This document shows positions 7,764 through 61,261 of a stretch of DNA of 64,000 nucleotides, one piece after another. The stretch covers positions 130,485 through 194,484 of the forward strand of contig JACAFG010000001.1 in the NCBI GenBank assembly GCA_019352195.1. Reading direction: 5' to 3'. Within the stretch, counting starts at the first letter, position 1; every line of letters begins with the position of its first letter. The notes below the pieces were generated by a model that saw only the letters and a program-made list of their open reading frames with translations, did no database searches and was not told where the DNA came from. The position numbers and the translations under genes are program-made. This stretch comes from Candidatus Saccharimonadota bacterium (GTDB lineage Bacteria > Patescibacteriota > Saccharimonadia > UBA4664).

Positions 7764-9686
7764 TTGCTACAATATAACACTATGACAACCCCCGAAATTC
7801 GCGCCGCCTACCTCAAGTTTTTTGCCGACCGTGGCCATGCGGTAATTCCGCGCGCTCTTTTGGTACCCTATAACGATGCCACAACGCTGTTTACCGGCTC
7901 GGGCATGCAGCCACTGCTGCCGTATTTGTTGGGACAGGAGCACTCGGCCGGCACACGCTTAGTCGACTCCCAAGCCTGCTTCCGGGCCGAAGACATCGAC
8001 GAAGTTGGTGACAATCGTCACACGACCTTTTTTGAAATGCTCGGCAACTGGAGCTTGGGCGAATACTTTAAGGCCGAGCAATTGCCATGGTTTTTTGAAT
8101 TTCTCACCTCCGTCGTTGGTCTCGAACCCGCCAAGCTGTATGTCACCGCCTTCATGGGCGACCCTAAAAACAACATTGCGCGCGATGAAGAAGCCGCTGA
8201 AATTTGGACAAAACTATTTGATGCCAAAGGCATAAAAGCCGAAATCGGCGTTATTGGCGCTGAAGAACACGGCTACAAGCGCGGCATGAAGGCCGGCGAG
8301 CGCATTTTTTATTACGACGCCAAGAAAAACTGGTGGAGCCGAGCCGGCATTCCCGAAAATATGCCGGCCGGCGAGCCGGGCGGCCCAGATTCGGAAGTGT
8401 TCTACCGTTTTGATGACTCCGAGCACACCGATGACGAGAAGAAGCAATGGGGTGAATTGTGTCATCCCAACTGTGACTGCGGCCGCTTCATGGAAATTGG
8501 CAACTCGGTGTTCATGCAATACATCAAGCGTGACGATGGCGGCTTCGATGAATTGCCACAACGTAACGTGGACTTTGGCGGTGGCCTGGAGCGGATTGCT
8601 GCCGCTGCCAACGGCGACGGCGACGTCTTCCGGATTAGCTTGCTGTGGCCCATTATCGAGCAGCTCGAAGATTTATCCGGAACAGCGTACAACCAAAATT
8701 CGGCCGCTATGCGCATTATTGCTGATCATTTGCGGGCTGCCGTGTTTTTGGCGACCGATGGTGTGGCGCCCAGTAACACTCAGCAAGGCTATGTGCTGCG
8801 CCGCCTCGTTCGCCGCGCCATTCGCCAAGCTTTGAGCTTGGACCTTAAAGAAGATTTTCTCGAAACAATTATTCCTACCATCACCGAACTATACCGCGAC
8901 GACTTCCCCGAAGTAGCAAGTCGTGAGCAAATTGTCATTGAAGTGTTGGTAGCCGAGGAGCGCAAATTCCGCCGCACGCTAGAAAAAGGCATTAAAGAAT
9001 TCGACAAAGTGGTTGGGGCCAAGTTGACCGGTGAAGCGGTCTTTAAGTTGTCTGATACCTATGGTTTTCCGGCCGAGCTGACCGTAGAAGAGGCCAAGGA
9101 TCGCGACATCAAACTTGACGATAACTGGAAAGCCGATTTGGACAAGCTCATGACTGCCCAAAAAGAGCGGTCCCGCTCTGCCACGGCCGGCCAGTTTAAA
9201 GGTGGGTTAGTCGACCACTCCGAAATGTCGACGATGTACCATACGGCCACGCACTTAATGTACCAAGCGTTGCGCGATGTCTTGGGCCAACACGTGGTGC
9301 AACGGGGAAGTAACATCACCCCAGAGCGACTACGTTTCGATTTTTCTCACGACGCTAAAGTGACGCCGGAACAAATCGCCGAAGTGGAGCGCATCGTTAA
9401 CGAGCAGATCAACAATGATCTCGTGGTGAGCTTTAAAGAGTATCCCACCAAAGTCGCTATCGGCGAGATGGGCGCCATCGGCCAATTTGGCGATCGCTAC
9501 GACGAAACCGTGAAGGTGTACCGCATGCAGGGTAAAGACGCCGCCCAACCGTTTAGTTTTGAGATCTGTGGCGGTCCGCACGTCGATCACGCGAGTAAGT
9601 TAGCCGAAGGCGGCAAAACTTTCAAAATCATCAAAGAAGAATCCAGCTCGTCTGGTGTCCGGCGCATTAAGGCCATCCTGCAATAA
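7764..9686 (+). CDS. alaS: Alanyl-tRNA synthetase, short form lacking the C-terminal C-Ala domain
   Basis: N-terminal AYLKFFADRGH...LFTGSGMQ is the AlaRS catalytic core. The editing domain carries HTATHLM...H and CGGPHV zinc-binding motifs. It has 640 aa against about 870 typical. Confidence 0.85.
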   Translation: MLQYNTMTTPEIRAAYLKFFADRGHAVIPRALLVPYNDATTLFTGSGMQPLLPYLLGQEHSAGTRLVDSQACFRAEDIDEVGDNRHTTFFEMLGNWSLGEYFKAEQLPWFFEFLTSVVGLEPAKLYVTAFMGDPKNNIARDEEAAEIWTKLFDAKGIKAEIGVIGAEEHGYKRGMKAGERIFYYDAKKNWWSRAGIPENMPAGEPGGPDSEVFYRFDDSEHTDDEKKQWGELCHPNCDCGRFMEIGNSVFMQYIKRDDGGFDELPQRNVDFGGGLERIAAAANGDGDVFRISLLWPIIEQLEDLSGTAYNQNSAAMRIIADHLRAAVFLATDGVAPSNTQQGYVLRRLVRRAIRQALSLDLKEDFLETIIPTITELYRDDFPEVASREQIVIEVLVAEERKFRRTLEKGIKEFDKVVGAKLTGEAVFKLSDTYGFPAELTVEEAKDRDIKLDDNWKADLDKLMTAQKERSRSATAGQFKGGLVDHSEMSTMYHTATHLMYQALRDVLGQHVVQRGSNITPERLRFDFSHDAKVTPEQIAEVERIVNEQINNDLVVSFKEYPTKVAIGEMGAIGQFGDRYDETVKVYRMQGKDAAQPFSFEICGGPHVDHASKLAEGGKTFKIIKEESSSSGVRRIKAILQ

Positions 9687-27168: not shown

Positions 27169-27615
27169 ATGCGTAACCGTGCCTCCGCCATAGTGATAAA
27201 AGACGGCTGTATTGCTCTCGTCCACCGTCTCATAGCCGGCGAAGATTATTACGTGTTTCCGGGAGGCGGTATCGATGAGGGCGAAACTCCCGATCAGGCC
27301 GCCGTGCGCGAGCTCATGGAAGAAACCAGCCTTACGGGCGAGATCATCAAATTAGTCGCTCACACTACGCTCAAAGGCATTGTAGACAACAGCTATTTCT
27401 TGTGTCGCTACGTAAGCGGGGAACCAGAGTTAGGCAACTTCAATGAGCGGGCCAAAATGGACGCTGGTGCCGACGATCGTTATGAACCCATGTGGGTGAG
27501 CATGTCAGCACTACCGGCCAATTTGTATCCCGAATCCATTCGTGCGTGGCTGCTTGAGGCCATAAAATCAGATTTTGATGGGCCGGCCTTCGTCACGATT
27601 AAGAATCCTGCTTAG
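27169..27615 (+). CDS. NUDIX hydrolase
   Basis: Nudix box GGGIDEGETPDQAAVRELMEETSL (GX5EX7REUXEEXGU). Confidence 0.85.
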   Translation: MRNRASAIVIKDGCIALVHRLIAGEDYYVFPGGGIDEGETPDQAAVRELMEETSLTGEIIKLVAHTTLKGIVDNSYFLCRYVSGEPELGNFNERAKMDAGADDRYEPMWVSMSALPANLYPESIRAWLLEAIKSDFDGPAFVTIKNPA

Positions 27616-44000: not shown

Positions 44001-47000
44001 ATGAAGCGTTATAATCCGTCCGAAATCGAGCCCAAATGGCAGCAAACCTGGACTGACACTCAACTTTACAAGGTGACGGAAGACTCGTCGCGGCCCAAGT
44101 ACTACATGCTTACCGAGTTCCCGTATCCGTCGGGCGATGGTTTGCACGCAGGCCACATCCGCGAGTACACCGTGGGCGATGTTATCGCTCGGCACAAGCG
44201 TATGCAGGGCCACAACGTGCTCTATCCCATGGGCTACGACGCTTTTGGTTTGCCAACTGAAAATTACGCTATCAAACACAAAATTGCCCCGCAAGTTGCG
44301 ACCGCCACTAACGTGGCCAACTTCCGCAGACAGTTCGATCAACTCGGTTTGTCGTTCGACTGGAGCCGCGAAGTAAACACTACTGATCCAGATTATTACC
44401 GCTGGACCCAATGGCTGTTTTTGCAATTTCTGAAAGCGGGACTCGCTTATCAGGATGAAATTGCCATCAACTGGTGTCCCAAAGAAAAGACTGGTCTCGC
44501 TAACGAAGAAGTCGTCAACGGCAAACACGAACGTTGTGGCACGCCGGTCGAGAAAAAGTTTCTCAAGCAATGGTTATTTCGCATTACCGACTACGCTGAT
44601 CGTCTCATTGATGGCCTAAAAACCGTCGATTTCCCCGATAAAATTGCCAACCAACAGATCAATTGGATTGGTCGCTCCGAAGGTGCGGAAATTGATTTTG
44701 CGATCAAAACTCAAACCGAACCCACCTTCTATCAATTCTTTGAGCCGGGCAAAATCAAGCCCGAGCATCCTTTTGTTGAGCGTGATGGCATTTTGGCGAT
44801 TGTGAAGCATTGGAATGAAGACAAATATCTTGGCTTACGTTGGAAGCAGGTGGACTGGGAAACATTTATCACTGGCGGTATAGAAGCCGGACAAACCCCC
44901 GAGACTGCTGCCCTCGCAGAAATCCAGCAAGAAACTGGGTATATCAACGCACGACTCGTAAAAGATCTCGGCCGCATGCACTCGCAGTTTTTCCATGTGC
45001 CAAAAAACCAAAATCGTCACGGGCACTTTAAGATGCTGTATTTTGAGCTCCAAGATGACAAACGCGTGACGGTAGCTGACGAAGAACAGTCGATCCACGA
45101 ACCGGTATGGCTCACTCGGGCCGAAATTGCCGACTTTAAGCTGCCATCGTCCCACCGATTTATGTGGGAGCAGTTGGCCGGCCGACCAAGCGACTCCGTG
45201 CGCGTTTACACTACGCGCCCAGATACATTGTTTGGTGTGACATATTTGGTCTTGGCACCCGAGCATCCGCTGATAGAACGCTACATTCACCAATCGTCTA
45301 ACGCCGAAGAAGTGAGCATCTACGTTAAGGCGGCTATCGGCCGCGCCGAGCTGGAGCGTCAGGAGGCTAAGGAAAAAACTGGGGTCGAACTGAAGGGAAT
45401 TAAGTCCGTTCATCCGCTTACCGGCGAAGAGCTTCCAATCTGGGTGGCCGATTACGTCTTGGCGGGCTACGGCACTGGCGCCATTATGGCCGTACCGGCC
45501 CACGACGAGCGCGACGGCGAGTTTGCCGCCCAATTTGACCTGCCGATAATCCCAGTGGTCGAGCCTGTTACGGGTAACCCGTTACCCGACGAAGAGTATC
45601 GCCGCAGCATTGTGGCTCTCGTGCGCAATCCCAGAACCAATGAAGTCCTCTCGATCAACTGGGGCCAACAGGGTGGTAACATTTTCATTGGCGGCGGTAT
45701 AGACGAAGGTGAAGACGTTGTTGAAACGGCCCGCCGCGAAGTACTAGAAGAGACTGGGTATATAAATCTCAAACTTATTGGCCAATCTGAAAAAATTCAT
45801 CACCACTACATAGCGCACTCCAAGGGCGGTATTAAGCGCGGGATCGATGTTTGGGGAGTCTATTTTGAACTGGAAAACGATGATCGTGACGAGCAGAAAT
45901 TAGAAGCCGACGAGGAAGGTAAATTCACGGTTGAGTGGCTGCCATCGACCAAAGTTGAGCAGCTTGTCAATGACGAACTGCACAAGTATGTTTACGAAAA
46001 ATTCATTGGCCAAAAATGCTACATTGGCTATGGCCCGCTCGTAAATTCAGGCGAGTTCGATGGTCTCCAAGGTGACGAAGCCAAAGCCGCCATAGTGTCC
46101 AGGCTCGAGCAAATGGGTGTCGGCAAAACTGCCAAAAAGTACAAGCTCCGCGACTGGGTTTTTAGTCGCCAGCACTATTGGGGTGAACCAATTCCGGTCA
46201 TTCACTGTCCTAAAGACGGTGTTGTGCCGGTGCCCGACGACCAGCTGCCAGTCACTCTGCCGCCAGTTGAATCCTACGAACCTACCGACACCGGCGAGTC
46301 GCCCCTCGCTGCCATGACCGATTGGGTCAATGTCGAGTGTCCACAGTGTGGCGGTCCGGCCAAGCGCGAAACCGACACTATGCCCAACTGGGCAGGGTCA
46401 AACTGGTACTACCTGCGCTATATGGATCCGCGCAACAACCAAGCATTTGTCGGCGAGAAAGCGCTCGACTATTGGCAGCATGTGGATATGTACTTGGGTG
46501 GCATGGAGCACACCACGCTCCACTTGCTTTACTCACGTTTTTGCCACCAATTTTTGTACGACCAAGGCCTTGTGCCAACCCCTGAACCTTACGCTGCCCG
46601 CCGTGGGCAGGGGATTGTATTGGCTGCCGATGGCCGCAAAATGAGCAAATCAATTGGCAACGTCATCAATCCCTCCGATATTGTTGCCAAGTACGGCGCC
46701 GACACTATGCGCCTCTACATTTTATTTATGGCGCCGTATGACGAAACGACACCCTGGAGCGACGAGCGACTGGGCGGCGTCAACCGCTTTGCCTACCGCG
46801 TCTGGACCCTCGTGCAGCAATTAGCTGCCAACACTACACAAACCGGCGATCCCGATGGCACCTTTGTCACCGAAGTTGATCGCTTTGTTCACAAAACCCT
46901 CAAAAAGGTCCACGATGATCTCCACGACATGCGCTTTAACACGGCCATTGCAACTATGATGGAACTCCTCAATAATCTCAGCACCCCGGCCATCAACACG

Positions 47001-47363
47001 CGCATTATCGAGCCGCGTCACGCCGATTTGGCCACCCGCACCGCCCGCACCTTCGTTTTGATGCTAGCCCCATTTGCGCCCTATATTGCCGAAGAACTCT
47101 GGCACGAACTTGGCAGTGACGACAGTGTTCATACGGCCGCGTGGCCTAGCTACGATCCGTCGCTCATCAAAGACGACGTCGTAGAGCTAGCGGTCCAAGT
47201 TAACGGCAAACTCCGCGGGACCATTTTGGCCGCCGTCGAAGCGTCCGAAACCGAGATCGTGGCCGCTGCTAAAGACAACCCCAACGTCGCCAAGTTCCTA
47301 ACTGGCACAATCGCTAAAACCATCGTCATCCCGCGTCGGCTAGTTAACTTTGTAGTGAAGTAG
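44001..47363 (+). CDS. leuS: Leucyl-tRNA synthetase with two NUDIX-fold insertions in the CP1/editing region
   Basis: HIGH-type motif (PYPSGDGLHAGHIREY) and KMSKS present; editing domain TTRPDTLFGV; C-terminal domain conserved. It is 1120 aa against about 800-860 typical; the two extra inserts are described in the findings. Confidence 0.9.
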   Translation: MKRYNPSEIEPKWQQTWTDTQLYKVTEDSSRPKYYMLTEFPYPSGDGLHAGHIREYTVGDVIARHKRMQGHNVLYPMGYDAFGLPTENYAIKHKIAPQVATATNVANFRRQFDQLGLSFDWSREVNTTDPDYYRWTQWLFLQFLKAGLAYQDEIAINWCPKEKTGLANEEVVNGKHERCGTPVEKKFLKQWLFRITDYADRLIDGLKTVDFPDKIANQQINWIGRSEGAEIDFAIKTQTEPTFYQFFEPGKIKPEHPFVERDGILAIVKHWNEDKYLGLRWKQVDWETFITGGIEAGQTPETAALAEIQQETGYINARLVKDLGRMHSQFFHVPKNQNRHGHFKMLYFELQDDKRVTVADEEQSIHEPVWLTRAEIADFKLPSSHRFMWEQLAGRPSDSVRVYTTRPDTLFGVTYLVLAPEHPLIERYIHQSSNAEEVSIYVKAAIGRAELERQEAKEKTGVELKGIKSVHPLTGEELPIWVADYVLAGYGTGAIMAVPAHDERDGEFAAQFDLPIIPVVEPVTGNPLPDEEYRRSIVALVRNPRTNEVLSINWGQQGGNIFIGGGIDEGEDVVETARREVLEETGYINLKLIGQSEKIHHHYIAHSKGGIKRGIDVWGVYFELENDDRDEQKLEADEEGKFTVEWLPSTKVEQLVNDELHKYVYEKFIGQKCYIGYGPLVNSGEFDGLQGDEAKAAIVSRLEQMGVGKTAKKYKLRDWVFSRQHYWGEPIPVIHCPKDGVVPVPDDQLPVTLPPVESYEPTDTGESPLAAMTDWVNVECPQCGGPAKRETDTMPNWAGSNWYYLRYMDPRNNQAFVGEKALDYWQHVDMYLGGMEHTTLHLLYSRFCHQFLYDQGLVPTPEPYAARRGQGIVLAADGRKMSKSIGNVINPSDIVAKYGADTMRLYILFMAPYDETTPWSDERLGGVNRFAYRVWTLVQQLAANTTQTGDPDGTFVTEVDRFVHKTLKKVHDDLHDMRFNTAIATMMELLNNLSTPAINTRIIEPRHADLATRTARTFVLMLAPFAPYIAEELWHELGSDDSVHTAAWPSYDPSLIKDDVVELAVQVNGKLRGTILAAVEASETEIVAAAKDNPNVAKFLTGTIAKTIVIPRRLVNFVVK

Positions 47364-47474
47364 CTAACGGTACCAATTAACCGATACTTATAATCTAGAT
47401 CGGTATTGCATGTTCGTAATTTGTTCGGTATACTCGGATGTGATATCTGATTATTATGATTACAGAGGAATACA

Positions 47475-47816
47475 ATGAGCGAATTATCTGAGTCAAAAGT
47501 TCGTACAATCGTTAGTGAAGAAATCGAGAAGAGCGTCACTATTGGCGTCATGAAAACGGATGTTTCAAATCTGAAAACGGACGTCTCCGAGCTTAAAACT
47601 GACGTCTCCGAGCTTAAAACGGACGTCTCCGAACTTAAAACTGACGTCCGCCGCCTTAATGTCATGTTCGAACATTTTGGGACAAAAATGGATGCAATTG
47701 CGGAGCTTGTTCACACTACCGTCAGCACGCGCAACGACGTTACCGAGCTCAAAGAGCGGGTCCAGCGGCTTGAGAGCGATGTTACCGTACTTAAATTAGT
47801 AGCACGTAACGACTAG
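47475..47816 (+). CDS. Coiled-coil protein with five 7-aa (21-bp) tandem repeats KTDVSEL
   Basis: In-frame 21-bp repeat array at 47553..47657, with heptad periodicity throughout. Confidence 0.5.
   Translation: MSELSESKVRTIVSEEIEKSVTIGVMKTDVSNLKTDVSELKTDVSELKTDVSELKTDVRRLNVMFEHFGTKMDAIAELVHTTVSTRNDVTELKERVQRLESDVTVLKLVARND
47553..47657. repeat. 21-bp tandem repeat x5 (aaaacgGAcGTcTCcGAgcTt)
   Basis: Read directly: repeats encode KTDVSNL/KTDVSEL x3/KTDVRRL. Confidence 0.9.
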
Positions 47817-48539: not shown

Positions 48540-49010
48540 ATGGCATCAAATCGTCACCTCGGCCGAATCGTTGCCATGCAAACGTTGTATGAGTTCGATT
48601 TCCGCGGTGGCGAGACTGAGCATGTCGAAATTGCGCCCATTTTGGAGCGCAATTTAGGCGAGTTTCGTTCGAGCATCGATGACACCGCGTTTGTTGAAGA
48701 CGTTGTTGCCGGTGTTCGCAGCAACCAAGACACCATTGATGGCGTTATTACGCCGGCCGCTCCCGAGTGGCCCATTGATCAGATTGCCAAAATCGATAAA
48801 GCGGTGCTTCGCATCGGTGTCTATGAACTCGTCATAAAACGCGACGTGCCGCCAAAAGTGGCTATTAATGAAGCTGTGGAACTTGCCAAAACCTTTGGCG
48901 GGGAAAACTCTAGTAAGTTCGTCAACGGCGTTTTGGGTACAATCTACCGCAACAGTGACTTCTATGAACCAGAAGAAGAGCCGGCGTCCCAGCCGAAACA
49001 ATCAAGCTAA
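48540..49010 (+). CDS. nusB: Transcription antitermination factor NusB
   Basis: [13 protein letters not shown]...; all-helical, 156 aa. Confidence 0.8.
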
Positions 49011-49458
49011 GTCGGACCGTGCCAACCGGGCTGTCCGTGAATATACTGCTGGCGGCGTGGTCTATCGTCGTATCGAGGACCGAGTTGAGATTCTGATGAT
49101 TCAGGATCGACTTGGTCGTTGGACGATTCCCAAAGGTCACGTTGAGGCAGGCGAAAGTATCGACCAAACTGCGTTACGTGAAGTGGCCGAGGAAACCGGT
49201 TTAACCGAGTTTCGTTTGGGCGACAAACTCGACAAACTGCACTTTTTTTACCGCAAAGAGGGCAAGCTCATTTTTATGACGACGCACGTTTTCCTCATGG
49301 AAGCGCTTGGTGATACCGACGCCATCGTGCCCGAAGATTCCGAAGGTATTGCCGACGCCAAATGGTTTGACTCGGTGGAAGCCCTCAAACTCATTGAGTA
49401 CCGCGATACCGAAAAACTGTTCCGGCTTGGCCTCGAGAAAGTCTACGCCACTACATAA
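48964..49458 (+). CDS. NUDIX hydrolase
   Basis: Nudix box [23 protein letters not shown]. Start set to the internal ATG 48964; it overlaps the nusB 3' end. Confidence 0.75.
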
Positions 49459-49510
49459 TTCGATCGCCTTTTAACTATAAATTTATAACCAACAACGCTT
49501 AAGAAATGCT

Positions 49511-50230
49511 ATGATTAACACAAGTTCAATGACAATTGATGATTTTCAACACCGTCTCGGTGTCCAATTTAACGATATTAGCCTGCTTGAACGGGCATTT
49601 ATTCATCGCTCATATCTCAATGAGCACCCCAAACTCGGCCTCGAGCATAACGAACGCCTCGAGTTTTTAGGCGACGCCGTCCTCGAGCTTGCCGTAACCG
49701 ATTATTTATACCGAACTTTCCCTAACCCCGAAGGCGACCTTACCAACTGGCGGTCCGCCCTCGTAAAAACCGAGAGCCTGGCAGCCGTGGCCGAAGAACT
49801 CGATATTTTGCCCCTGTTCAAACTCAGCCGCGGTGAGACCAAGGGTAATGCCCGCTCACACGCGCTGATATCGGCTAACGCCGTTGAGGCGATTATCGGC
49901 GCAATTTATCTCGATCAGGGCTACGATGCTGCTCGCGGGTTTATTGCCGCGCAGATTATTGCCCGCCTCGACGAAATATTGTCTACCGGAGCGTGGATGG
50001 ACGCCAAAAGTCGCTTCCAAGAGTTGGCTCAAGAGCAGTTTGGTCTCACGCCTGCCTATAAAGTGCTGGGCGAAGAAGGTCCCGATCATGACAAAATTTT
50101 TACCATTGGCGTATATGTTGGCGACAAAGTCTTTGGTCAGGGCAATGGTTCGAGCAAACAAGCTGCCCAACAGGTAGCCGCGGCCGCCGCGCTTGAGTCC
50201 ATTGAGACTAAGTCCACCACAAAAGCTTAG
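49511..50230 (+). CDS. rnc: Ribonuclease III
   Basis: ERLEFLGDAVLELAV is the RNase III signature, with a C-terminal dsRBD. Confidence 0.9.
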   Translation: MINTSSMTIDDFQHRLGVQFNDISLLERAFIHRSYLNEHPKLGLEHNERLEFLGDAVLELAVTDYLYRTFPNPEGDLTNWRSALVKTESLAAVAEELDILPLFKLSRGETKGNARSHALISANAVEAIIGAIYLDQGYDAARGFIAAQIIARLDEILSTGAWMDAKSRFQELAQEQFGLTPAYKVLGEEGPDHDKIFTIGVYVGDKVFGQGNGSSKQAAQQVAAAAALESIETKSTTKA

Positions 50231-54198: not shown

Positions 54199-55023
54199 AT
54201 GTATAGCTTACTGAATCTTTCTGGCGACAGCCAGGGTTGCCTGGATCTGGTTATTGCCAACGTTTATCCTGATGGACTGGTTTGCCCGTGGCTGCTACAT
54301 TCTTCGGTATTGGTCCGCGAAAAGTACCTGTGGTGCTCGTCATGCCGCCGTAAATGGTCCTTAAAACGTCAGTTTGGCTTTGGGTTCTCCAAGCTATCGT
54401 GGCGCCAGATCTTGGCTCTTATCATCTGTTGGCAGGGTAAGCATGCACCGGGCGACATTCAGATCGCCACCGGCTTGTCATATCCCACCTTGCAGCGCTG
54501 GTTGGAACGTCTACGCCGGAAGCTGCCGGATGGCAAAGCCGCTGCCCTAGCCGGAGAACTAGAAATCGATGATAGCTTCCTGGGCCACCAGAAACATGGT
54601 AACCAGGCGATTGTTAGTGGTGTGTTGGAACGGCAAACGGGAGCTATACGTCTCGCCGTCATACCGGATGTGGCCCAAGACAGTATCGAAGGCTTTCTTG
54701 ACCGGTACGCCGAAGTTGGGAGCTTAATCTACGCCGATGCCCATGCTTCACATGTCGGACTGGAAGACGTCGGCTATGGCTTAGTTCTCTGCAACCATGA
54801 CCGCGGCCACTTTGGGCCAACCAACCGGATTGAGAATGTTTGGAGCTGTTTGGACCGGTTTGTGATCCGGACCCGTGACCGGTTCTTGAAGCGCTTCTTA
54901 CCGGGTGTCCTACAAGAGTTTCAGGCCAGACGTAATCACCCGGAACTGTTTCGAGATCCCTTTACCTTACTTAAAGTATGGCTGTTCCGGTTTAGTGGAC
55001 AGAACCCTTTCGTTAACTGTTGA
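54199..55023 (+). mobile_element. IS1595-family (ISXO2-like) transposase ORF
   Basis: N-terminal Cys-rich zinc-ribbon-like region and the DDE_Tnp_IS1595 pattern (LEIDDSFLGHQKHG...SGVLERQTGAIRLAVIPD...GSLIYADAHASH). Imperfect inverted repeats aaaacggaacaag (54137) and cttt-attccgttg (55047) suggest an IS of about 920 bp. Confidence 0.65.
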
Positions 55024-59453: not shown

Positions 59454-59528
59454 TGGGATGTGGCCAAGCGGTAAGGCGTCTGATTCTGGCTCAGAAGATC
59501 GTAGGTTCGAATCCTACCATCCCAGCCA
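59454..59528 (+). tRNA. tRNA-Gln (anticodon CTG)
   Basis: Acceptor TGGGATG/CATCCCA with U1-A72, anticodon stem TCTGA/TCAGA with loop TTCTGGC, T-arm GTAGGTTCGAATCCTAC, discriminator G, CCA encoded. Confidence 0.8.
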
Positions 59529-61112
59529 TTTAGTTTTTATACCCGCAATAGCGGCAGTTTTCTCCTCAGCAGAGCCAGAATCTGAGGTTCTAACCATTTC
59601 ATATTCAGCCTTGAGCGCCGGTAGGCCTTTTTGGATAGGAATAAGCCACTCAAAAGGCATTAATTCGATTTTCCCGCCGTAAAGTGTTGGGTTTGAACCC
59701 AGCGCCAGTAATATGTCGCGCTTGGCGGTAATATCGCCTTTCTCAAACCGCTCTCGGCCATGAGCGATCACATCAATCGTCTTGTGCAGACCTTCACGCC
59801 AACTGGCCGCCCGATTTGTGGTGTCGGCGACATTATCTTCCATATCCTTGATCTGGCTCAATAGAGCTTTCGATTTTTCCTTAAACACCTCGTCCCGGAT
59901 TAGCTCTTTGCTAGCCATGTCGATCAATTTGTCATGCTGTTGGCGCATTTGCTGCAAGGTAGAAAACTGCGTATTTTCAATAGCTTTTCGCTCTTCTGCT
60001 TCGGAGCCGTTCATTTCCTTAATAGCTTCGAGTGCCCACTCCTCAAATTGAGGATGAATTGTGTAGCTATCGAGCAAAGCGTCTAATTGGCCGGCAAGAT
60101 TCTTTTCCTCTACCGTTTTGCGGTTATCGCATGGACGCTTGCGCGTGCAGTGATAGTAGATGTAATGCAGCACAGTGCCGTTCTTCAGCCTCTTATATTT
60201 GTCTTGGGCAGTTACGCTACAACCGCACTCCTTGCAGAAGAGGAAGCCTCGATAAGCAAACTCTTTAACTACCGATTGTCGGGGCTTGCCCTTATTGCCG
60301 AGAATGATCTGCGCCTTATCATACTCTTCCATAGTGACCATCGCGGGGTAGTTGGCTTTTTCGTACTCGCCGAGCTTACCAGGTACAGGTATTAGCCCTG
60401 TATACCGAATATTAGTAAATAGGAGATAGAGAGTGCTACGGGTCATAGGCGTACCGCCAGACCTGCGGCGTACCGGCGTACGGTAGCCCCATTCATCATT
60501 CGCTATTTTCTGTATCATCGGCACGCTGTAATTTCCGGAAAGAAGCATGTCCCACATCTTCCGTATTAGCGCATGCCGATCTTCATCAGCAATAATGATG
60601 CCCTGGTCAGGGTTATTAGGGTTTCGGGCATTCAAGTAACCTGGGAGTGCCCTATAAGTTAACCAACCATTCTTGCGCTGCTGTTCGTTGCCACGCTTAA
60701 CATCCACACTGAGCTTAGCCGAGTAATACTGTGACTGACTCATCATGCTTTGCAGCATCATGATACCGTCCGGCGAATTGTTGAAATGATAGGAACCAAA
60801 TTTGAGGTCTTGGATAAATCCACGCCGTATTGCGTAGGTGATGTTGGCGGCGTCAATCTCATTGCGGGATAGGCGGTCAGGGTGCCATGACAAAATACCA
60901 TCAGCTTCGCCGTTCTTGATCATATCCATGACCTTGGCGAAGACAGGTCGGCCCGGCTCAAATGCGCTGCGGCTTTCCTCTAGTGTGGCAACTATTTTGA
61001 TGCCCGGAAACATCTCCCTCAGCTTGCGTGCCTGGGCGGGGATTGATAAGCTCTGTCGCTCAGCGTCTTCGGACGATTTACGAGCGTATAAAATGTAGCG
61101 AAGTGAATTCAT
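59514..61112 (-). mobile_element. Large serine recombinase (integrase) gene abutting and overlapping the tRNA-Gln 3' end
   Basis: N-terminal resolvase catalytic domain YARKSS...(S nucleophile), DGILSWHPDRLSR, a recombinase domain, and a Cys-rich zinc ribbon (CKECGC...C). About 532 aa. The 3' end overlaps tRNA-Gln by about 15 nt. Confidence 0.8.
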
Positions 61113-61261
61113 ATTTATTCCCAAAAACCTAAAGGGCGACTCGGTTGTTGACACAGTCCATAGCAAGAAGCTATTTCCTGATACCGAGCCGCCCTTACGG
61201 GCCGGGAAATAAAAACACTTCTCGCAAATTTATGGACCGTGTCAACGTTCACATTGTACCA

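Follow-up and report, generated by a model that had tools for sequence, protein, structure and literature searches.

Accessory domains of aminoacyl-tRNA synthetases (aaRSs) are a classic route to new biology, including editing, signalling and the production of diadenosine tetraphosphate (Ap4A), and are documented mostly in eukaryotes. The synthetases themselves make Ap3-5N dinucleoside polyphosphates, and RppH/NudH, MutT1 and NUDT2 are the known Nudix Ap4A hydrolases (PMC7705103). A 2026 survey of domain insertions described the editing domain of leucyl-tRNA synthetase (LeuRS) as insertion-exclusive, with zero instances as a host in 213 events (PMC13114784). Literature searches on LeuRS or aaRSs combined with Nudix, and on Patescibacteria, Saccharibacteria and the Candidate Phyla Radiation (CPR), did not turn up a LeuRS, or any other aaRS, described as bearing a Nudix domain, and a large Nudix review leaves tRNA unmentioned. 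Here we describe a leuS gene from a Candidatus Saccharimonadota bacterium (assembly GCA_019352195.1, contig JACAFG010000001.1, positions 130,485 to 194,484 of the forward strand; this whole 64,000-nucleotide stretch is called the window), whose product carries two Nudix-fold domains. This protein contradicts the general view of the LeuRS editing domain as one without insertions of its own (PMC13114784).

The leuS open reading frame (ORF) lies at 44001..47363 on the forward strand and encodes, without interruption, a bacterial-type LeuRS of 1120 aa plus stop. A first-pass annotation, made from the sequence of the window, had claimed two extra segments in this protein at about 44700..45200 and 45573..46035; the ORF, the TIGR00396 model and the alignment with Thermus thermophilus LeuRS (1h3n) bear this out, the measured limits being only a few residues away. 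The first segment, insert A, is a Nudix-fold domain of a variant type, called here QA, and comprises 163 aa (aa 237-399; 44709..45197, forward strand) that replace residues 238-242 of the T. thermophilus enzyme (Tt). At the entry to the editing domain, it occupies the hairpin turn that joins the AEIDF (GAEI.F) strand to the VYTTRPDT strand. The second, insert B, is a Nudix domain with a canonical box and comprises 140 aa (aa 532-671; 45594..46013, forward strand) in place of Tt 373-374. Its site is a loop within the CP1 editing domain; as CP1 is in turn an insertion in the Rossmann fold, insert B is doubly nested.

Scanned alone, both inserts match the Pfam NUDIX family (PF00293), whose gathering score is 21.1 bits: insert A with 49.4 bits (E 6e-13) and insert B with 56.1 bits (E 5e-15). 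The box of insert B, GGIDEGEDVVETARREVLEETGY (aa 565-587; 45693..45761, forward strand), is an exact match to GX5EX7REUXEEXGU, with E571, R579, E580, E583 and E584, as had been read at first sight. The corresponding segment of insert A, GGIEAGQTPETAALAEIQQETGY (aa 292-314; 44874..44942, forward strand), departs from that pattern in precisely the way first noted: Q298 at box position 7, A306 at position 15 and Q310 at position 19 represent the changes E7 to Q, R15 to A and E19 to Q, while E307 (position 16) and E311 (position 20) are kept.

AlphaFold2 models of the isolated insert domains, built from family alignments, reached a predicted local distance difference test (pLDDT) score of 94.1 and a predicted template modelling score (pTM) of 0.88 for insert B, and 88.0 and 0.84 for insert A. 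Foldseek comparisons of both models with the PDB returned only Nudix hydrolases at probability 1.0, with template modelling (TM) scores up to 0.70-0.80. The best match was the same for A and B, the uncharacterised Enterococcus faecalis MutT/nudix protein 2AZW; for B it was followed by E. coli RppH (TM 0.70) and Aquifex Ap4A hydrolase (TM 0.70/0.79), and further by Mycobacterium smegmatis MutT1, NudB, NudI and ADP-ribose pyrophosphatase. A profile of 29 B-type inserts found AvrM14 as its best PDB match (E 5e-9), then lupin Ap4A hydrolase, Dcp2, DIPP1 and BsRppH. The A-type profile had no PDB match at E<=1e-3, and insert A was recognised there by the fold search only. Taken together, these results confirm that both inserts are Nudix-fold domains, each hosted by a surface loop in or at the CP1 module, far beyond a chance match to a motif. 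A DNA repeat search around leuS detected only the two homologous segments that code for the Nudix boxes (D1, 71%), and no flanking repeats or mobile-element signature around the inserts.

The remainder of the protein is that of a bacterial-type LeuRS. TIGR00396 (leuS_bact) scored the whole protein at 974.2 bits (cutoff 548.4), and Pfam detected the class I catalytic, LeuRS editing and anticodon-binding domains besides the two NUDIX stretches. Four blocks are collinear with the T. thermophilus enzyme: aa 1-236 with Tt 1-237, aa 400-531 with Tt 243-372, aa 672-876 with Tt 375-580, and aa 880-1120 with Tt 637-877. According to this alignment, aa 1-236 (44001..44708, forward strand) contain the N-terminal half of the catalytic (Rossmann) domain and the ZN-1 region; the HIGH motif appears as HAGH (aa 49-52, nt 44145-44156), NWIGRSEGAEIDF (aa 221-233) closes the segment, and the whole segment is 90% identical to that of P0006, a relative that carries no insert. 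The CP1 editing-domain core (aa 400-531; 45198..45593, forward strand) has TTRPDT as its Thr-rich motif (aa 404-409, nt 45210-45227) and AHDERD as its conserved Asp motif (aa 500-505, nt 45498-45515), and the editing domain PF13603 scored 185.7 bits. The rest of CP1, including LVNSGEFDGL (aa 680-689), the second catalytic half with KMSKS (aa 880-884, nt 46638-46652), the anticodon-binding domain and the C-terminal domain follow at 46014..47360 (forward strand). Since HIGH, KMSKS, TTRPDT and AHDERD are intact, there is no sign of a disabled synthetase, and the gene apparently encodes a LeuRS that would work as such.

The leucine-specific domain that precedes KMSKS in the E. coli and T. thermophilus LeuRSs is absent from the window protein, where aa 876-880 span Tt 580-637 (nt 46626-46652 encode aa 876-884). 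This domain contributes to tRNA binding, and the AgnB2 and Helicobacter pylori LeuRSs are functional without it (PMC5059758). We considered the inserts as a compensation for its loss and rejected this idea: the domain is missing from all relatives examined, insert-less ones included, and its absence is therefore unrelated to the inserts. An Rfam scan near leuS detected neither a leader nor a riboswitch; three tRNAs lie elsewhere in the window.

The first-pass annotation regarded the box of insert A as degenerate. It is indeed non-canonical, but the comparison with its relatives does not show decay. Among the A-type domains, E7 is replaced by Q in 14 of 15 and R15 by A, T, L or S in 14 of 15; E16 and E20 are invariant, and position 19 is Glu in ten and Gln in five, the window protein being among the five. 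Over 268 boxes, embedded and free-standing, 198 combine E with R at positions 7 and 15, 44 combine Q with a residue other than R, and 4 are mixed (Fisher P ~1e-43, uncorrected for phylogeny). So few mixed boxes indicate that the two positions changed as a pair. The QA variant also occurs in the complete free-standing proteins P0130, P0135, P0137, P0144 and P0150, and once at site B (P0062). Pairwise comparison of the 13 proteins that have both domains gives average identities of 62.6% (A), 38.1% (B) and 63.2% (LeuRS core); in the A alignment, 43 columns are invariant, and insert A of the window is 54-63% identical to the A-type domains of 12 other LeuRSs. A domain as conserved as the LeuRS core, of a variant found in free-standing proteins too, makes the word degenerate misleading. 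As judged from these alignments, the A domain is a specialised and strongly constrained module and no decaying relic, which permits the definition of a conserved QA-variant Nudix box.

In site-B domains the box is canonical in 84 of 95. The three glutamates E16, E19 and E20 are kept in 94 of the 94 box-bearing inserts at this site, which argues for selection on catalysis.

The Nudix inserts of all sites are related to each other, with cross-site identities from 27% to 66%. Inserts A and B of the window are 26% identical when aligned, and in BLAST their best matches at other sites reach about 30% (E ~1e-18). The two free-standing NUDIX genes previously noticed in the window, at 27169-27615 and 48964-49458, are genuine (54 and 68 bits), and an origin of the inserts from them was considered. 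It was rejected: these genes are only 26-28% identical to the inserts (E ~1e-5) and score 20-44 bits with the insert profiles, against 100-205 bits for true members of the subfamily.

The A-type profile was run with HMMER against 1.84 billion cluster representatives in an exhaustive search, which gave 554 matches at E<=1e-3, of which 253 were at E<=1e-10 and 59 at E<=1e-30. Among the best 150 of the 554 there were 102 long proteins and 48 of 260 aa or shorter. LeuRS motifs were present in 87 of the 102 long matches, and eight of ten others examined were LeuRS fragments; no host other than LeuRS was seen among the 102 by this motif check and the examination of ten motif-less proteins. Of the 48 short matches, four that show a LeuRS motif are probably fragments, and most others are complete proteins of ~155-190 aa that start with Met and are encoded inside contigs of up to 300 kb. 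The subfamily is thus found in two states only, as small free-standing proteins or embedded in LeuRS. No NCBIfam model claims it, the best weak resemblance being to RppH (17-40 bits, with cutoffs of 116-259). Database pipelines already tag the architecture, as in the Joint Genome Institute (JGI) name of one relative, 'leucyl-tRNA synthetase/ADP-ribose pyrophosphatase'.

The genomic surroundings of ten free-standing subfamily proteins were inspected. P0166 ends 1 nt upstream of a leuS of 951 aa that bears a Nudix domain, and P0163 ends 3 nt upstream of an insert-less leuS in two assemblies. P0130, of the variant type, lies within a co-directional cluster from metG to an insert-less leuS (locus L084, 1482-10389), in the order metG, an unknown gene, TatD, the QA-variant Nudix gene, two small ORFs, an HD/YfbR-like phosphohydrolase, another unknown gene, a second and unrelated NUDIX gene, and leuS; several nucleotide-hydrolase genes are strung there between two aaRS genes. 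P0276 follows argS at a distance of 12 nt, with an IleRS-like gene two genes further on; P0307 is directly upstream of thrS-miaA; P0303 is between queA and rnc-rnj; and P0290 follows two femAB genes. An aaRS gene is the immediate neighbour in four of the ten, compared with ~4.5% expected (rough binomial P 7e-4, uncorrected for phylogeny). A Rosetta-stone pattern appears when loci L086 and L087, in which leuS has no insert and a free-standing copy adjoins it, are compared with a leuS that carries an embedded copy. Two classic kinds of evidence for a functional link, Rosetta-stone and neighbourhood, are combined here: fusion is with LeuRS only, and free-standing copies adjoin aaRS genes. Both fusion and gene neighbourhood connect the subfamily with aaRS genes, and this points to an undescribed link between tRNA charging and the hydrolysis of nucleotide derivatives.

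One of the free-standing genes of the window, 48964-49458, overlaps the end of nusB and stands between nusB and RNase III (region 48540-50230). With 24-44 bits it does not belong to the LeuRS-associated subfamily. A true subfamily member was found in a similar Nudix-RNase III-RNase J arrangement in locus L091.

The first-pass annotation called the insertion unusual, and this stands for aaRSs in general; a survey of its phyletic distribution, which that annotation had proposed, showed that many LeuRSs of Saccharimonadia and Patescibacteria carry Nudix inserts and that in Saccharimonadia they are common. The survey covered the 120 best LeuRS relatives, labelled Saccharimonadia, Saccharibacteria or Patescibacteria where named (the labels are the depositors' own), and insertion sites were mapped by alignment to the insert-less P0006 (829 aa). 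Seven or more sites were found, designated G, A, C, B, E, D and F. Pfam assigned representative inserts to NUDIX at sites A, B, C and G, to ASCH at site A, to Ser_hydrolase-type alpha/beta-hydrolases at sites A, B and D, and to HAD at site F. An insert of ~143 aa at site D (P0023, P0037 and P0063), with a G.KT.E.R motif reminiscent of ASCH, and one of 131 aa at site E (P0048) had no Pfam match. The commonest form is Nudix at site B, present in 92 of the 120 relatives; 16 have no insert at this site.

A scan of GTDB species representatives, complete genomes included, detected at least 88 loci or species with a site-B Nudix LeuRS, in most of which the protein has ~950-960 aa and a single B Nudix; the query consisted of seven close B-type sequences, and the census is biased to the 'HHHY' B subtype. 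A word-seeded homologue search with insert B alone gave one match and was too insensitive for a divergent query of 154 aa. A few of the loci from the GTDB scan (L006, L012, L014, L015, L025 and others) are labelled Bacillota, Bdellovibrionales, Gammaproteobacteria, Nanoarchaeia or Aenigmatarchaeota, and probably represent mislabelled or contaminated bins of metagenome-assembled genomes, not genuine occurrences beyond Patescibacteria; the Nudix-LeuRS they encode is of the Saccharimonadia type.

Some relatives are considerably more elaborate than the window protein. P0034 (1616 aa) has five inserted domains, namely an alpha/beta-hydrolase at A, two Nudix at C, a Nudix at B and an ASCH-like domain at D; P0083 (1518 aa) has two tandem Nudix at A and a HAD at F; and P0113 and P0116 (~1300 aa) have three Nudix domains, at G, A and B. 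P0035 (1025 aa) carries ASCH at site A and, at site B, a remnant of 99 aa from which the Nudix box is deleted, an apparent intermediate of insert decay. The window protein thus exemplifies a broader trend, the occupation of several LeuRS sites by hydrolase-type domains of several kinds. In locus L089 (5386-8498), two genes past argS and a free-standing subfamily gene, an IleRS-like class I synthetase of at least 1167 aa, cut by the end of the locus, has a histidine-phosphatase domain (His_Phos_1, PF00300) between its catalytic halves. The hosting of domains by aaRSs in these organisms is therefore not limited to LeuRS.

A neighbour-joining, distance-based tree of the LeuRS core requires at least 15 state changes at site A and at least 20 at site B. 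The closest core relatives of the window protein have no inserts (P0006 with 77% identity, P0020 with 73% and P0029 with 71%), and the 13 other LeuRSs with an A-type domain form one distant clade, the NudA clade, with 52-56% core identity. For the CP1 segment aa 400-531, members of the NudA clade occupy ranks 1-5, 7 and 8 among the matches; for the N-terminal, post-CP1 and C-terminal segments their ranks are 92-119 of 119. The B domain of the window is of the 'HHHY.AHSK' subtype, typical of LeuRSs with a single insert, and its identity to the NudA-clade B domains is only 27-34%. From these alignments we infer that leuS of the window is a mosaic, in which an A-Nudix domain and its CP1 segment recombined into a P0006-like leuS. 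The A domain and CP1 segment would have been imported into a lineage whose closest relatives are insert-less. Insert content is labile in evolution: leuS alleles gain, lose and swap inserts by recombination, and an essential aaRS of the CPR repeatedly acquires, loses and exchanges catalytic domains nested in its editing domain.

As every catalytic residue is kept, insert B is most likely an active Mg2+-dependent pyrophosphohydrolase. Its X-loop has a Tyr at +16 (HHHYIAHSK), and an aromatic residue, Tyr or Phe and mostly Tyr, occurs in the B family at +16 in 91 of 95 and at +17 in 85 of 95; insert A has Phe-Phe-His there. A Tyr ~17 aa downstream of the box coincides with ApnA hydrolase activity, although as a marker it is correlative only (Dunn 1999, as cited in PMC5389931). 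Pro, the marker of ADP-ribose pyrophosphatases, was found neither at +15 nor at +16 in the A and B families, and none of the 120 insert sequences carries the NADH pyrophosphatase (NudC) motif SQPWPFPxS. Lupin, Aquifex and human Ap4A hydrolases, RppH/NudH and MutT1 are among the best PDB relatives of insert B.

The likeliest substrates of insert B would be adenylated dinucleoside polyphosphates (Ap4A, Ap4N and Ap3N), which synthetases produce by the reaction of their bound aminoacyl-adenylate with a nucleotide. By fusion, the scavenger, the Nudix domain, would be tethered to the producer, LeuRS. This coupling of producer and scavenger for ApnN is the most economical hypothesis, and we propose it tentatively, its chance being in our estimate somewhat short of even. 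The aminoacyl-adenylate itself was considered as a substrate and appears unlikely on general grounds, since Nudix enzymes cleave pyrophosphate linkages and not acyl-phosphates. The first-pass annotation had suggested action on mischarged products or aminoacyl-adenylate, or a regulatory role. A link with aaRS chemistry is favoured, and within it by-products of the ApnN type are more likely than the adenylate. For insert A, the box suggests that catalysis is probably weakened or altered, and the domain may have a role in binding a ligand or a partner.

Several observations weigh against the coupling of ApnN production and scavenging. Scores of the inserts with the NCBIfam RppH equivalog models are 17-26 bits and do not reach the cutoffs of 116-259; the similarity of the B profile to Ap4A hydrolases and RppH (E ~1e-8) is weak and non-discriminating; and NudB, NudI, ADP-ribose pyrophosphatase and MutT1 share the match lists of insert B. 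The unrelated ASCH, Ser_hydrolase-type alpha/beta-hydrolase and HAD domains use the same LeuRS loops, which would fit a docking site that is simply permissive. LeuRSs often lack inserts, as do those nearest in core sequence to the window protein (71-77% identity), and the domains are therefore not needed for LeuRS function. LeuRS is not known to be among the strongest Ap4A producers. In addition, the neighbourhood statistic is small (n=10) and uncorrected for phylogeny, and three of the ten free-standing proteins (P0144, P0137 and P0185) have unrelated neighbours.

Some of these points lead directly to a different explanation, in which the loops of CP1 are simply permissive and small housekeeping hydrolases have lodged there, working independently of LeuRS. 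The fusion would give them only co-expression, in a streamlined genome, with an essential and constitutively made protein. Four unrelated domain families at seven or more sites, the frequent gain and loss (at least 15 and at least 20 changes), the insert-less state of the closest relatives, the decayed remnant of 99 aa in P0035 and the unaffected LeuRS motifs are all what such lodgers would leave. On the other hand, lodgers would not be expected to enrich their free-standing kin beside aaRS genes, the Nudix subfamily is embedded only in LeuRS among the 102 long matches, and the A domain equals the LeuRS core in conservation. We consider this explanation doubtful, but a serious contender.

The same variety of inserts can be read in a more functional sense. 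The patescibacterial LeuRS would be a modular docking platform, whose CP1-region loops host interchangeable hydrolase cassettes (canonical and QA-variant Nudix, ASCH, Ser_hydrolase-type esterase and HAD), swapped between leuS alleles by recombination and forming a cis-acting toolbox. Such a toolbox would couple tRNA charging to the clearance or sensing of ApnN alarmones, by-products that derive from the adenylate, or to the surveillance of tRNA and RNA ends. In this extended form the idea is unlikely to hold; if true, it would mean that ultra-small bacteria have a new layer of quality control or signalling of their own, linked to aaRSs.

A distinctly unlikely explanation is an RppH-like action on RNA 5' ends (triphosphate, NpnN or NAD-type caps) or on tRNA itself, with the LeuRS tether giving reach to tRNA or nascent RNA and the A domain as an RNA-binding module. 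The match lists lend themselves to it, with E. coli RppH among the best TM-scores of insert B (0.70), the decapping Nudix AvrM14, Dcp2 and BsRppH in the profile matches, and RppH models as the weak best matches in NCBIfam; every one of these model scores is, however, far below its cutoff, and the RppH-type and Ap4A-type Nudix activities overlap, so that such matches cannot separate them. ASCH, a PUA-like RNA-binding fold, occurs at the same sites in relatives, QueA, RNase III, RNase J and MiaA are encoded beside free-standing members, and the inactive Nudix protein CF Im25 binds RNA and Ap4A. Mature tRNA has a 5' monophosphate and therefore offers no obvious substrate, and a further Nudix gene already stands next to RNase III in the window.

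It is improbable that both Nudix domains are non-catalytic, structural or ligand-sensing elements that modulate aminoacylation or editing, for example by sensing Ap4A, ADP-ribose or ppGpp-type signals or by aiding tRNA binding without the leucine-specific domain. Such a role is most plausible for insert A, with CF Im25 as a precedent: its box has lost E7, R15 and, in the window protein, E19, and yet the domain is highly conserved. The absence of the leucine-specific domain, a contributor to tRNA binding (PMC5059758), might also speak for it, but insert-less relatives lack that domain too and no correlation with inserts exists. The perfect box of insert B and the three catalytic Glu in 94 of 94 site-B domains are hard to explain without catalysis, and the QA variant exists in free-standing proteins.

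Finally, there is a negligible chance that the segments are ordinary CP1 expansions with a fortuitous motif, the alternative that the first-pass annotation had set against its own Nudix-fold reading, or an assembly chimera, as each insert has its own significant Pfam match, the models are confident Nudix folds with hundreds of Foldseek matches, the ORF is uninterrupted, and the same architecture is present in >100 independent assemblies and at least 88 GTDB species.

Some other features of the window were noted. Directly downstream of leuS, 47475-47816 (forward strand) encodes a coiled-coil protein of 113 aa with a 21-nt tandem repeat of 4.6 copies, translated as KTDVSEL heptads (47553-47648); this repeat probably also gives rise to the long antisense ORF 47150-47665. 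An alanyl-tRNA synthetase of 640 aa, with a catalytic domain and tRNA_SAD, is encoded at 7764-9686 (forward strand) and is C-terminally short compared with the E. coli enzyme, which has ~875 aa. An IS1595-family transposase is located at 54199-55023. A serine recombinase (59514-61166, reverse strand) abuts tRNA-Gln (59454-59528), and the GC content falls to ~0.47 beyond 60 kb; this region may be an element integrated at a tRNA gene.

As kinds of protein, an aaRS with an accessory domain and a Nudix hydrolase are both known. Unexpected are the modularity over several sites and several families, the QA-variant box, the neighbourhoods linked to aaRS genes and the origin as a mosaic. Should the Nudix domains act on by-products of the Ap4A type, an alarmone producer and its scavenger would for the first time be physically fused, which would also provide a directly testable handle on Ap4N metabolism in organisms with ~1-Mb genomes. 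The insertion sites may also be considered as naturally validated permissive sites of LeuRS for protein engineering.

Compared with the LeuRSs of T. thermophilus (1H3N, 2BYT) and E. coli (4AQ7), all core domains of the window protein are collinear, with the same HIGH, KMSKS and CP1 Thr-rich and HD..D motifs, and the anticodon-binding and C-terminal domains are present as well. The window protein differs from them by the 163- and 140-aa Nudix domains at Tt 238-242 and 373-374, and by the absence of the leucine-specific domain, in which it resembles the AgnB2 and H. pylori enzymes. Among class I aaRSs with an acquired catalytic module, the isoleucine-tRNA ligase with an N-acetyltransferase domain (NCBIfam NF040702), and CP1 itself, are comparable; here, unlike the NF040702 type, the Nudix module is nested inside the already inserted CP1, and relatives can have two to four Nudix copies, or ASCH, alpha/beta-hydrolase or HAD domains instead.

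On the Nudix side, 2AZW was the top Foldseek match of both inserts and AvrM14 (8DP8) the top profile match of B, but their identity to the inserts is 16-18%; 2AZW is without known function, and AvrM14 is a decapping Nudix effector of the flax-rust fungus. CF Im25 offers a possible analogue of insert A, as a Nudix fold with a non-canonical box that is used for binding and not for hydrolysis, whereas insert A keeps E16 and E20 (and most of its relatives E19), and the resemblance found is one of fold. The Nudix ApnA hydrolases and RppH (E. coli RppH/NudH, Aquifex 3I7U, lupin 1F3Y, human NUDT2 and mycobacterial MutT1) share with insert B the fold, the complete box and the aromatic or Tyr residue of the X-loop ~16-17 aa after the box; they differ in that identity is only 14-21% and that insert B, a putative hydrolase, is embedded in an aaRS and not free. 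A parallel to the logic proposed for LeuRS, an aaRS as producer and a Nudix hydrolase as scavenger, is the axis of LysRS, Ap4A and NUDT2 (PMC7705103). In that case the partners are separate eukaryotic proteins with a signalling role, whereas here the synthetase is LeuRS, the partners are joined in one polypeptide or encoded by adjacent genes, and the organisms are Patescibacteria.

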